A stretch of 64,000 nt of DNA from Escherichia coli (GCF_003334405.1 NZ_QOWM01000008.1), one strand, 5' to 3'; counted from the first letter of the stretch, positions 59,552 to 61,610 are shown. Numbers and translations: made by a program. The notes: generated from the sequence alone by a model not told the origin.

Positions 59552-60487
59552 ACGTCAGGAAAGCAGGGGAGAATGCTGCTAGTTGGGCAACTGGTCTTTC
59601 TGCTCCAAATTATAACAGAGACCAGTTATAGTTTCGGTGCTGTGTTTTTTTACAATATTGTGATAACACATTGCTGGCGGGAGTTTTGATATTTCTTGGC
59701 AGGGGCTGATGATGCGTTATCCTGATGTCGTCAACTCATATAAAATGAGATGAGAGATCATTGCAGGGTGGTTTGTAATTCGCTGTTTAGCGGGACAATA
59801 TGTTGTCTGATACAAGACACCCGACGCCTCAGATTACTATAATAAAGACGAAGCATCCTTTGTATTGACCAACCGCCTGTTTAGGCGGTTCTTTTTGGGC
59901 TGGTTTATTGTATGCCAAATGATTATTAAAAAGGTTGTGTTAATAACAAAATCCGAAATAATATGCCTGCATATTTTTATCTTGCTTATATTCTGCATAT
60001 TGTGCATAGCAGGCTCATCCCTGCAATCAAAACTGTATGATGAGTATTTTTTGTTTTCCTTTTTTCCAGTCATCTGATGATGACCTGCTTCTTTTTAATC
60101 CGGATCGACATCAGTTTTTTAAGATAATTCCTGCGAGTTATATGCATAAATGCCACAAACTCCGCATTTTATGTGGTTGGGAGTTGCCGGGCGCGCAGTG
60201 AGTTTGCTAAGAAAACTCCTGCATGGTGAATCCCCCTGTGCGGTGGGGTGATACCATTAACCTTTTCTGTCGCCGACAGGTATCACGAACATTTTGTTCA
60301 CCGGGAGGCACCCGGCACCATGTACTTCAATAGATTCTCTCCACATTATGGATATTCTTTCAGAATATCCCACGCAGACTTTGTGTAAATGTTAACAAAT
60401 GTGCGTTTTATTTGATCTGATTCGCTGTTTGAGCGTCCAAAACAACGGTATATATAATCCTTTACTATATGACATATGTGAGGAAAA

Positions 60488-60916
60488 ATGGGTTTTCGTA
60501 GCGCATCAATTCTTACGTTGATTATTAGTGGGATTATTATCGGGTGCACTGATGCTGTATCGACAAATTATCATGACCGTACATCATATTACTCCGATAA
60601 AGCAATAGAGACACAGTATGTGAGTTCATCTGAACGTACTTCTGATGTTAGTGAGGATATCCGTCTGTATGCCCATCAAATCAAGAGCGCCATCGAAAAA
60701 CAGTTCGGGGATGCGAGTAAGTATTCAGGAAAAGAGTGTACACTGAGAATGCATATGGCCCCGAATGGCCTTCTACTGGAGGTTAAAAGAGAAAGTGGAG
60801 ACCTCGATTTATGTCGTGAAGCGATGAATGCGATAAAGAATGCTGATATACCTGCCCCCCCTTCGCCGGAAGTATATAAAGTATTTCAAAATGGGGTGCT
60901 GGATTTTAAACCCTGA
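60488..60916 (+). CDS. lipoprotein with TolA domain III-like C-terminus (142 aa)
   Basis: Lipobox IIGC; C-terminal YAHQIKSAIEKQFGDASKYSGKECTLRMHMAPNGLLLEV...PSPEVYKVFQNGVLDFKP resembles TolA C-terminal domain. Confidence 0.65.
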   Translation: MGFRSASILTLIISGIIIGCTDAVSTNYHDRTSYYSDKAIETQYVSSSERTSDVSEDIRLYAHQIKSAIEKQFGDASKYSGKECTLRMHMAPNGLLLEVKRESGDLDLCREAMNAIKNADIPAPPSPEVYKVFQNGVLDFKP

Positions 60917-61066
60917 TATTTATTGTTTTGTAATAAACGGTTTCGGCTTAGGTTTGTTCTGACACAGCTACGGCACTGAGCTAAATTTAGCGGATAGTCA
61001 GCTCTGAGCCAGTGGCGGACGTAACAACTACTATTGCTGAGATTTTAATGGATTGAGGAGCAAGAA

Positions 61067-61462
61067 GTGGGATTAAAGAAAATCGTTATGTTGACTTTTT
61101 GGGTCGGTTTTGTTGCGGGATGCACACCTTTACACCCTTCAGATTGCCACAAAACTACTGCTACAGGTAGTTGCAGTTCAGGACGCTGGGATGATCAGGA
61201 TGAATGGGGGGCGCAAGCGCGGGGAATCAGAGCTGCAATTAATGCCAAACTTGATGAGCCGCATAACTGGAAAGGGAAAAAATGCAGGTTGCATATGGAA
61301 TTCTCTCAGGATGGCACGGCGTTAAAAATATCTACCAGTAACGGTGATAAAGCCTATTGCGAAGCGATAAAGTCCGCAGCTCATAAAGCCAAATTTCCGG
61401 CCTTCAACAATCCGGAAGTCTACAGAGATTTTCAGAAATCTGGCTTTGACATGCGAGGTTAG
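61067..61462 (+). CDS. second lipoprotein with TolA domain III-like C-terminus (131 aa)
   Basis: GTG start after GAGGAG; lipobox VAGC; shares C-terminal pattern with the upstream paralog. Confidence 0.6.
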   Translation: MGLKKIVMLTFWVGFVAGCTPLHPSDCHKTTATGSCSSGRWDDQDEWGAQARGIRAAINAKLDEPHNWKGKKCRLHMEFSQDGTALKISTSNGDKAYCEAIKSAAHKAKFPAFNNPEVYRDFQKSGFDMRG

Positions 61463-61587
61463 CTCTTCAATTACTATATCTCATTCATAGCAAACTGACA
61501 GATTTGATGATGTTCTATATACGAAACCTGTGATGTCAAGTCTGAGCTAATACAAATAAACATAATATCAGAGAAATACATTTTATT

Positions 61588-61610
61588 AGCTCGCTACGGC
61601 GAGCTTTTTA
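61588..61610 (+). terminator. hairpin terminator after the lipoprotein pair
   Basis: agctcgc-tacg-gcgagct followed by TTTTT. Confidence 0.55.

Follow-up and report, generated by a model that had tools for sequence, protein, structure and literature searches.

Two small lipoproteins of the TolA domain III type in a Rac prophage of Escherichia coli: possible decoys for TolA-dependent phages and colicins

Introduction

What would a prophage gain from carrying stand-alone copies of a domain of its host's TolA protein? The question is raised by a 64,000-nucleotide stretch of Escherichia coli DNA (GCF_003334405.1, NZ_QOWM01000008.1; "the window" below is this whole stretch at its full length), in which two adjacent open reading frames (ORFs) within the Rac prophage, ORF1 and ORF2, encode small predicted lipoproteins ending in a TolA domain III (TolAIII). 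Filamentous phages (Ff, If1 and CTXphi-type) share this domain of TolA as their gateway with group A colicins and related bacteriocins. An account of the window made from its sequence alone (the sequence-only reading) had described the pair as tandem prophage lipoproteins and had suggested that they could act as decoys excluding TolA-dependent phages or colicins, or could alter the function of the Tol-Pal system, while being aware of no characterised function for such proteins. On the last point our searches agree: none was found in the literature, with most subscription journals outside the coverage of the search, PADLOC defence models gave no match to either protein at E ≤ 1, and a scan of PHROG families returned phrog_5772 alone, annotated as "unknown function".

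ORF1 and ORF2 encode lipoproteins with a TolA domain III

Both lipoprotein genes described by the sequence-only reading, ORF1 (60488–60916) and ORF2 (61067–61462), are complete ORFs on the plus strand, encoding 142 amino acids from an ATG and 131 amino acids from a GTG start codon, respectively, and both products are predicted outer-membrane lipoproteins. The N-terminus of ORF1 is MGFRSASILTLIISGIIIG-C20-TD, with the signal peptide and the lipobox IIG-C20 encoded at 60488–60547 on the plus strand; it is followed by a low-complexity linker (residues 21–54) and by TolAIII (residues 55–142, 60650–60913; Pfam PF06519). ORF2 begins with (GTG)MGLKKIVMLTFWVGFVAG-C19-TP, has its signal peptide and lipobox VAG-C19 at 61067–61123 on the same strand, and continues with a linker carrying a conserved Cys-x8-Cys pattern (residues 20–43) and a divergent TolAIII (residues 44–131, 61196–61459; PF06519). 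Both signal peptides, as read from the sequence, comprise a basic n-region, a hydrophobic core and a lipobox of the form [IV][IA]G-C, and the lipoprotein call is pattern-based (lipobox [LVI][ASTVI][GAS]-C, any residue but Asp being allowed at +2). Since the +2 residue is Thr and not Asp in both proteins, the standard Lol sorting rule predicts the outer membrane as their destination.

The start codon of ORF2 and its GAGGAG ribosome-binding site are kept in the prophage, plasmid, Enterobacter and Serratia copies of the gene; the start annotated in RefSeq lies 21 nucleotides further downstream (61088–61462), so that the n-region is lost and the signal peptide is cut. In AlphaFold models, the linkers between the anchor and the domain are disordered in both proteins. 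The ORF2 linker, PLHPS-C-HKTTATGS-C-SSGRWDDQDEW (residues 20–43), is nevertheless nearly invariant from E. coli to Serratia, and its two extra cysteines might pair to close a small disulfide loop.

The C-terminal domains of both proteins are clearly of the TolA type, with a similarity far above chance, and the likeness to chromosomal TolAIII that had been claimed from the sequence was borne out in alignment as well as in structure prediction. The Pfam model PF06519 matched ORF1 with an E value of 3.2e-23 (residues 49–140, model positions 4–96 of 96) and ORF2 with an E value of 1.5e-14 (residues 44–125, model positions 10–92 of 96), and phmmer searches of the TolA chains in the PDB (1s62, 3qdp, 2x9a_B and 1tol) gave E values of 5e-28 and 5e-9, respectively. 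Relative to residues 334–421 of E. coli TolA, residues 55–142 of ORF1 are 60.5% identical, while the identity of ORF2 is 34%. The AlphaFold model of the ORF1 domain, with a predicted local distance difference test (pLDDT) score of 95–98, superposes in Foldseek on 2x9a_B with a template modelling (TM) score of 0.96 and a root-mean-square deviation (rmsd) of 0.6 Å over 88 columns; for the ORF2 domain (pLDDT 86–95), superposition on 3qdp gave a TM score of 0.91 and an rmsd of 1.2 Å over 86 columns. Both models have the element order of TolAIII, alpha1-beta1-beta2-alpha2-alpha3-beta3. The intradomain cysteine pair of the E. coli protein (C363/C388) corresponds to C84/C109 in ORF1 and C73/C98 in ORF2, and it is conserved in 100% of 86 short and 37 long (true TolA) homologues. 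The related family TonB_2 (PF13103) matches ORF1 weakly (E value 7.6e-5), and TonB C-terminal domains match structurally at low TM scores.

Neither protein has the full architecture of TolA. The matches are limited to positions 265–362 of the 362 positions of TIGR02794 and to positions 293–386 of the 387 positions of NF007065. Scores for the latter, 107.8 and 53.7 bits, leave both ORFs below its cut-off of 213; for TIGR02794, with a cut-off of 59.45, ORF2 scores below (47.2 bits) and ORF1 above (75.6 bits), the latter on its C-terminal domain alone. Moreover, the genes are not located in a tolQ-tolR-tolA-tolB-pal cluster, their neighbours being a phage Q-like antiterminator and lysis genes within Rac.

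The two genes are functional and under purifying selection. In pairwise Nei–Gojobori comparisons, the ratio of nonsynonymous to synonymous substitution rates (dN/dS) was 0.07–0.14 among ORF2-type genes, at dS of 0.5–1.1, and 0.26–0.39 overall among ORF1-type genes, with values of 0.09–0.34 for the domain and 0.4–0.8 for the linker.

The description of the genes as tandem paralogues holds as far as homology is concerned (E value 2e-18, 29% identity, or 31% for the domains alone), but it overstates their closeness, since ORF1 and ORF2 represent two subfamilies, each of which is also found alone elsewhere. A recent tandem duplication is ruled out by the 31% identity of the domains, by the greater proximity of ORF1 to E. 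coli TolA (60%) than to ORF2, and by the single occurrence of the two types. A very recent capture of the 3' end of the host tolA gene as the source of ORF1 is unlikely, given an identity of 60% to E. coli TolAIII and no closer TolA representative.

The conserved docking edge and a possible decoy function

Three ligands, g3p-N1, colicin N and the TolB N-terminus, attach by beta-strand addition to the beta3 edge strand of TolAIII (L417-D418-F419-K420), and the substitutions D418P and K420P abolish all three interactions (PMC4339652; PMC7391070; PMC7066135). The binding is mostly via the backbone (PMC4339652; PMC7391070), and point mutations at beta3 result in a full tol phenotype (PMC4339652). 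The invaders bind TolAIII with an affinity of about 1 µM, versus a dissociation constant (Kd) of 40–200 µM for TolB (PMC4339652, PMC7391070). Colicin A occupies a site formed by the beta2 strand L375–P380 together with K368, K379 and K396 (PMC3365938).

The beta3 strand of ORF1, LDFKP, is an exact match to L417-D418-F419-K420-P421 of TolA, and that of ORF2, FDMRG, is a conservative change. At the colicin A site, ORF1 has LLEVK where TolA has LLDIK, keeps K379 and K396, and has His in place of K368, whereas ORF2 has lost all three of the lysines that make cation–pi contacts with colicin A. The ligand range probably differs between the two proteins, with ORF1 as a close mimic of E. coli TolAIII. 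Across the 86 short and 37 true TolA homologues, conservation of beta3 in the short family equals or exceeds that in TolA (72% versus 37% for D418), while the colicin A lysines are poorly conserved among the short proteins; the constrained surface of the short family is therefore the promiscuous beta3 docking edge. In an AlphaFold model of a TolB(22–36)-linker-ORF2 fusion, the TolB box RIVID was placed as a paired beta-strand with a pLDDT of only about 50, a weak hint of pairing between TolB and ORF2.

A decoy role makes reasonable mechanistic sense, given that ORF1 keeps the beta3 sequence LDFKP and most of the colicin A site and that the short family conserves beta3. The reading that we favour, tentatively and with slightly less than an even chance of its being right, is that ORF1 and ORF2 are TolAIII decoys tethered to the outer membrane, which capture ligands that bind TolA, such as g3p and group A colicins. 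The Lol pathway would deliver each small lipoprotein to the inner leaflet of the outer membrane, where a flexible linker of 25–35 residues would hold a stand-alone TolAIII copy in the periplasm just under the membrane. Such a copy could not transduce the proton-motive force and could only bind, since it is devoid of a TolQR-coupled anchor and of domain II. The first partner met by ligands that need beta-strand addition on TolAIII for entry into the cell would be this tethered copy, which is not energised and would trap them. The ligands in question are the N1 domain of filamentous-phage g3p and the domains by which group A (TolA-dependent) colicins and related bacteriocins translocate; ORF1 would additionally trap colicin A at its beta2 site, and the carrier cell would become tolerant.

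TolA is a scarce protein, with hundreds of molecules in each cell, and TolB exceeds it several-fold. With these abundances and with affinities of about 1 µM for invaders against 40–200 µM for TolB, a modest amount of decoy could outcompete TolA for rare invaders without titrating TolB. In work by Levengood-Freyermuth, Click and Webster in 1993, the export of soluble TolAIII to the periplasm reportedly rendered E. coli leaky and gave it tolerance to group A colicins.

Late-region context of the genes

From about 45.4 kb onwards, the window is the E. coli Rac prophage (intR, recET ... trkG, pinR, ompN) in a version fuller than that of K-12. Upstream of the module formed by ORF1 and ORF2, a NinB-like gene (58016–58615) and an HNH/YbcO gene (58615–58905) are followed by a Q-like antiterminator on the plus strand (58902–59444), labelled DUF1133 by the Prokaryotic Genome Annotation Pipeline (PGAP) and matching PHROG 753 "anti-termination protein Q-like" with an E value of 3e-78, which marks the start of the late region. 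The interval of about 1 kb between this gene and ORF1 is free of credible genes and holds the prophage small RNA STnc100 (60191–60377, plus strand; Rfam RF02076, full-length, 83.4 bits versus a gathering score of 47), a relative of PasD (bioRxiv 10.64898/2026.05.13.724894). STnc100 is probably a short leader transcript of the late promoter.

A sigma-70 promoter-like site, TTGAGC-18-TATAAT (60429–60458, plus strand), matches the consensus at 10 of 12 positions and ends 30 nucleotides before ORF1. The consensus scan found 11 such sites in the region versus 6.9 expected, and we regard this one as a suggestive candidate promoter for expression of ORF1 in the lysogen. A ciprofloxacin study of enterohaemorrhagic E. 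coli (PMC11125564) was considered as evidence of expression and rejected, since EDL933_2012, named TolA in its text, is a tail fibre protein in its supplement.

Downstream of ORF2 and before the holin gene, the hairpin terminator noted in the sequence-only reading was found at 61588–61605 on the plus strand, with a 7-bp stem containing five GC pairs, a following TTTTTAT run and an RNAfold energy of -13.0 kcal/mol. The lysis cassette (61657–62887, plus strand) matches the PHROG holin, endolysin and Rz-like spanin families with E values of 1e-35 to 1e-77 and carries the PGAP names essD and rrrD; it comprises the holin (essD, 61714–61929), the endolysin (61929–62426) and Rz (62411–62887) with an embedded Rz1 (62643–62828), all on the plus strand. 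The GC content of the module is 0.42–0.46, with 0.33–0.41 in its intergenic flanks, and is thereby lower than the 0.47–0.52 of the adjacent genes. In related prophages the slot between Q and the holin carries other cargo, and ORF1-type genes occur together with different Q types. Insertion between the Q-like antiterminator and the holin, a predicted promoter, a terminator, low GC content and variable presence together suggest the classic anatomy of a late-operon moron, in line with the slot proposed from the sequence.

Upstream of the NinB-like gene lies a hok/sok-type locus, consisting of a sok RNA (RF01794, 105 bits, 57227–57402) and an overlapping ORF for a Hok-like protein of 51 amino acids (57397–57552).

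Distribution of the family on prophages, plasmids and chromosomes

The whole 1.5-kb module was found in 769 of 5426 complete E. coli genomes (about 14%) and in one of 50,697 phage records, that of the "evolved" phage mEp460 (mEp460_ev081), where it follows a lambda-type Q gene. The homology with mEp460_ev081 begins at position 60297 of the window, inside STnc100, which suggests a recombination joint within this RNA gene.

ORF1-type variants with 91% and 66% identity occur alone in other, unrelated lambdoid prophages, always between Q, of the lambda or the DUF1133 type, and the holin. In one of these prophages the order is Q ... TolA-like gene, nanS-p-like esterase, DUF1378, DUF826 and holin, a slot that corresponds to the position of stx on the maps of Stx phages. 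The ORF1-type protein P0023 is a chimera, in which the signal peptide and linker of the lineage with 66% identity are joined to a domain identical to that of ORF1 in the window; as read from this sequence, it shows recombination of alleles at the boundary between the linker and the domain.

The ORF2-type family is much larger, with more than 368 clusters at 78–89% identity, and the TolAIII lipoprotein genes turned out not to be specific to prophages, since the ORF2 type is commoner on plasmids of the IncI complex, on pO157 and as solo genes in Enterobacterales chromosomes. On IncI1, IncK, IncB/O and IncI-gamma plasmids, an ORF2-type gene directly follows nikA-nikB on the same strand after a gap of 68 bp and is convergent with trbCBA (loci L003, 5995–6426; L021, 6965–7396; and L011, 5965–6396; 88% amino acid identity for the gene of IncI1, IncK and IncB/O plasmids). 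The IncI allele has the accession WP_001335086. In pO157, the ORF2-type gene lies between a nikB remnant of 657 amino acids and toxB, an arrangement which suggests that this plasmid retains a piece of an IncI-type origin-of-transfer (oriT) module. In Enterobacter, Serratia, Citrobacter and Klebsiella oxytoca, the ORF2-type genes are solo chromosomal genes with no shared synteny. One of them, in Serratia marcescens (L008, 8001–10736), adjoins genes for GmrSD-family and HEPN-domain proteins in a setting that resembles a defence island.

A third type, found in about 286 Klebsiella IncFIB(K)/FII plasmid records of PLSDB, is the 144-amino-acid lipoprotein WP_001567367, with the lipobox LITA-C and the C-terminal end ALDFRL. 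Its gene is located directly downstream of that of a secreted thioredoxin-fold protein, WP_001567366 (L012, 5217–6246), possibly a partner dedicated to forming the disulfide between the two conserved cysteines of the domain.

A profile search of 1.84 billion cluster representatives revealed 679 relatives. Among the best 150 of these, 92 were short (up to 190 amino acids), and at least 55 of the 92 had a lipobox, with ordinary signal peptides in others; all named members of the set belong to the Enterobacterales and had been automatically named "TolA". The contigs carrying distant short homologues were mostly too small for their gene context to be read.

One could extend the decoy proposal to the whole family, so that short lipid-anchored TolAIII proteins would be widespread, hitherto unrecognised receptor-domain decoys of mobile elements, protecting their carriers from TolA-dependent invaders, with the ORF1, ORF2 and Klebsiella types tuned to different invaders; we consider this extension conceivable but doubtful. 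On IncI-complex and Klebsiella IncF plasmids, such decoys would offset the cost of pili, which expose the cell to pilus-specific filamentous phages, and in prophages and chromosomes they would provide tolerance to group A colicins and related bacteriocins. Conjugative plasmids would have a motive for a decoy, in that filamentous phages use the pili made by these plasmids as primary receptors before they require TolA.

Objections and alternative explanations

Several points stand against a decoy function of ORF1 and ORF2 or fail to support it. TolB, the cell's own protein, uses the same beta3 edge, and an action on the Tol-Pal system is thus equally predicted. ORF2, with 34% identity to TolAIII, a changed beta3 strand and no colicin A site, may have a ligand of some other kind entirely. 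The position of the genes just after the late promoter should lead to strong expression in lytic growth, when exclusion matters less, and expression in the lysogen rests on a promoter recognised by consensus only. Solo chromosomal copies among metabolic genes, as in Enterobacter and Klebsiella, could point to a housekeeping-like role in the envelope. An AlphaFold fusion of g3p N1 with ORF1 was uninformative about docking, as N1 came out poorly folded when modelled without an alignment (pLDDT 34–67); the pose of 1TOL was not recovered, and the whole-chain rmsd to 1tol was 17.6 Å. Finally, no paper, PADLOC model or PHROG function was found for these proteins.

The first of these objections leads to the main alternative, in which the tethered copies of TolAIII compete with energised TolA, at the outer membrane, for the TolA box at the N-terminus of TolB, so that Pal mobilisation falls and the outer membrane loosens. 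The proteins would then be late helpers of the prophage for lysis or release, or hypervesiculation factors, and on plasmids could ease envelope transactions, tolerance to colicins or phages being a side effect. The 1993 work of Levengood-Freyermuth is said to have found leakiness upon production of periplasmic TolAIII, and periplasmic TolAIII is used to raise vesicle yields. In addition, tol-pal defects lead to copious vesicles (PMC7391070), and the beta3 site, where point mutations give the full tol phenotype, is common to TolB, g3p and colicin N (PMC4339652) and conserved in both ORFs and in the family. The low-confidence pairing of the TolB box with the ORF2 domain in the AlphaFold model points the same way, as does the location of ORF1 and ORF2 as the first ORFs after the Q-dependent late promoter region, directly upstream of the holin, endolysin and spanin genes. 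However, the strong terminator splits the module, which has a promoter-like site of its own, from the lysis genes, as expected for a moron and not for an integral member of the lysis cassette. The presence of the genes in just one of the 50,697 sequenced phage genomes means that the module is dispensable for lambdoid lysis. Owing to the low affinity between TolA and TolB (Kd 40–200 µM) and the excess of TolB, very high expression would be needed for such an effect, and strong purifying selection, as seen on the solo chromosomal and plasmid copies, would be difficult to explain for a gene harmful to the envelope. On balance, antagonism of Tol-Pal appears unlikely, although it deserves to be taken seriously.

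In another alternative, the TolAIII fold serves as a generic adaptor for beta-strand addition to a different partner, such as an outer-membrane protein, a component of conjugation or entry exclusion, or another bacteriocin system of the Enterobacterales, and the ligands of E. coli TolA are merely historical. This is especially possible for ORF2, in view of its identity of 34% to TolAIII, its FDMRG beta3 strand and its lost colicin A lysines; the almost invariant linker across genera suggests an extra functional element absent from TolA. The co-orientation of ORF2-type genes with the IncI relaxase operon across a 68-bp gap, and the pairing of the Klebsiella plasmid type with a secreted thioredoxin-fold protein, also favour it. 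Nevertheless, ORF1 closely mimics E. coli TolAIII at both known ligand sites, the surface of the short family as a whole is most conserved at the strand that binds the known ligands, and the conserved neighbours suggest no alternative partner, with the chromosomal copies being devoid of synteny. As an account of the two proteins, a different partner is improbable. The decoy, Tol-Pal antagonist and different-partner readings are not mutually exclusive.

The last alternative concerns the annotation, in which PGAP labels ORF1 as "tolA, incomplete, missing N-terminus, pseudogene" (60656–60916) and ORF2 as [quoted passage not shown]. The pseudogene label is an artefact, because the C-terminal domain of this far shorter protein is enough to bring TIGR02794, a model of 362 positions, to 75.6 bits and over its cut-off of 59.45. 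That the two ORFs are decaying remnants, ORF1 a truncated tolA pseudogene and ORF2 a degenerate fragment, neither of them functional, is very hard to believe: the label in RefSeq genomes and the defective state of the Rac prophage speak for it, but both ORFs are complete, with their own start codon, ribosome-binding site and lipoprotein signal peptide, dN/dS stays at 0.07–0.39 with dS up to 1.1, the architectures of 142 and 131 amino acids recur in many elements and genera, and the pseudogene call is explained by the TIGR02794 cut-off, so that for ORF1, whose dN/dS is 0.26–0.39, the pseudogene reading is ruled out.

Significance

The labels "tolA pseudogene" and "cell envelope integrity protein TolA" given by PGAP hide a family with relatives on IncI/IncK, pO157 and Klebsiella IncF plasmids, hundreds in all, alongside genes for resistance and virulence. 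If the decoy proposal is correct, the family would exclude invaders by a new logic, in which a co-receptor of the periplasm is imitated and not a surface receptor blocked, and would offer an example of how a conjugative plasmid might protect its host from phages that exploit the plasmid's own pili. It would also be relevant to antibacterials based on colicins or phages and to hosts for phage display, with the module present in about 14% of complete E. coli genomes. If, on the other hand, the proteins antagonise Tol-Pal, they would be natural mobile regulators of outer-membrane stability and vesicle production, including on pO157.

Comparison with known systems

The closest counterpart of the ORF1 and ORF2 domains is chromosomal TolAIII (PF06519; PDB 1S62, 3QDP, 1TOL, 2X9A and 3QDR), with which they have in common the fold, the disulfide and the conserved beta3 strand. 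Chromosomal TolA, however, is an inner-membrane motor, with a transmembrane domain I that interacts with TolQR and a long helical domain II, whereas ORF1 and ORF2 have neither of these domains, carry a predicted lipid anchor in the outer membrane, would transmit no force, and reside on prophages and plasmids.

The TonB C-terminal domain family (TonB_2, PF13103) has the superfold and beta-strand augmentation in common with ORF1 and ORF2. TonB paralogues, of which CjrB is a plasmid-borne example, keep their membrane anchor and energy coupling, whereas ORF1 and ORF2 are of the TolA type in both sequence and structure.

As small lipoproteins of mobile elements in moron-like positions, ORF1 and ORF2 resemble Cor of N15, phi80 and HK022, Llp of T5 and TraT of F, which protect their carriers by disturbing a step in the entry of competitors; for ORF1 and ORF2 the same role is suggested by analogy. 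No sequence relationship to this class was detected in the PHROG and PADLOC scans. In addition, Cor, Llp and TraT inactivate an outer-membrane receptor (FhuA or OmpA), whereas ORF1 and ORF2 would be sinks that mimic the domain of a periplasmic co-receptor.

Functionally, the nearest precedent would be the laboratory constructs in which a free periplasmic TolAIII reportedly competes with native TolA for its ligands, as proposed here for ORF1 and ORF2. In the reverse arrangement, artificial periplasmic N-terminal domains of g3p are said to have given a dominant-negative phenocopy of "tol" in the work of Boeke, Model and Zinder in 1982. The laboratory TolAIII constructs are soluble and overexpressed, while ORF1 and ORF2 are natural, selected products of mobile elements and are predicted to be tethered by lipid. 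The family itself is already visible as a PGAP name and as PHROG 5772; what appears to be new, judging from these comparisons, is a natural, mobile-element-borne and lipid-anchored form of the dominant-negative TolAIII known from the laboratory.

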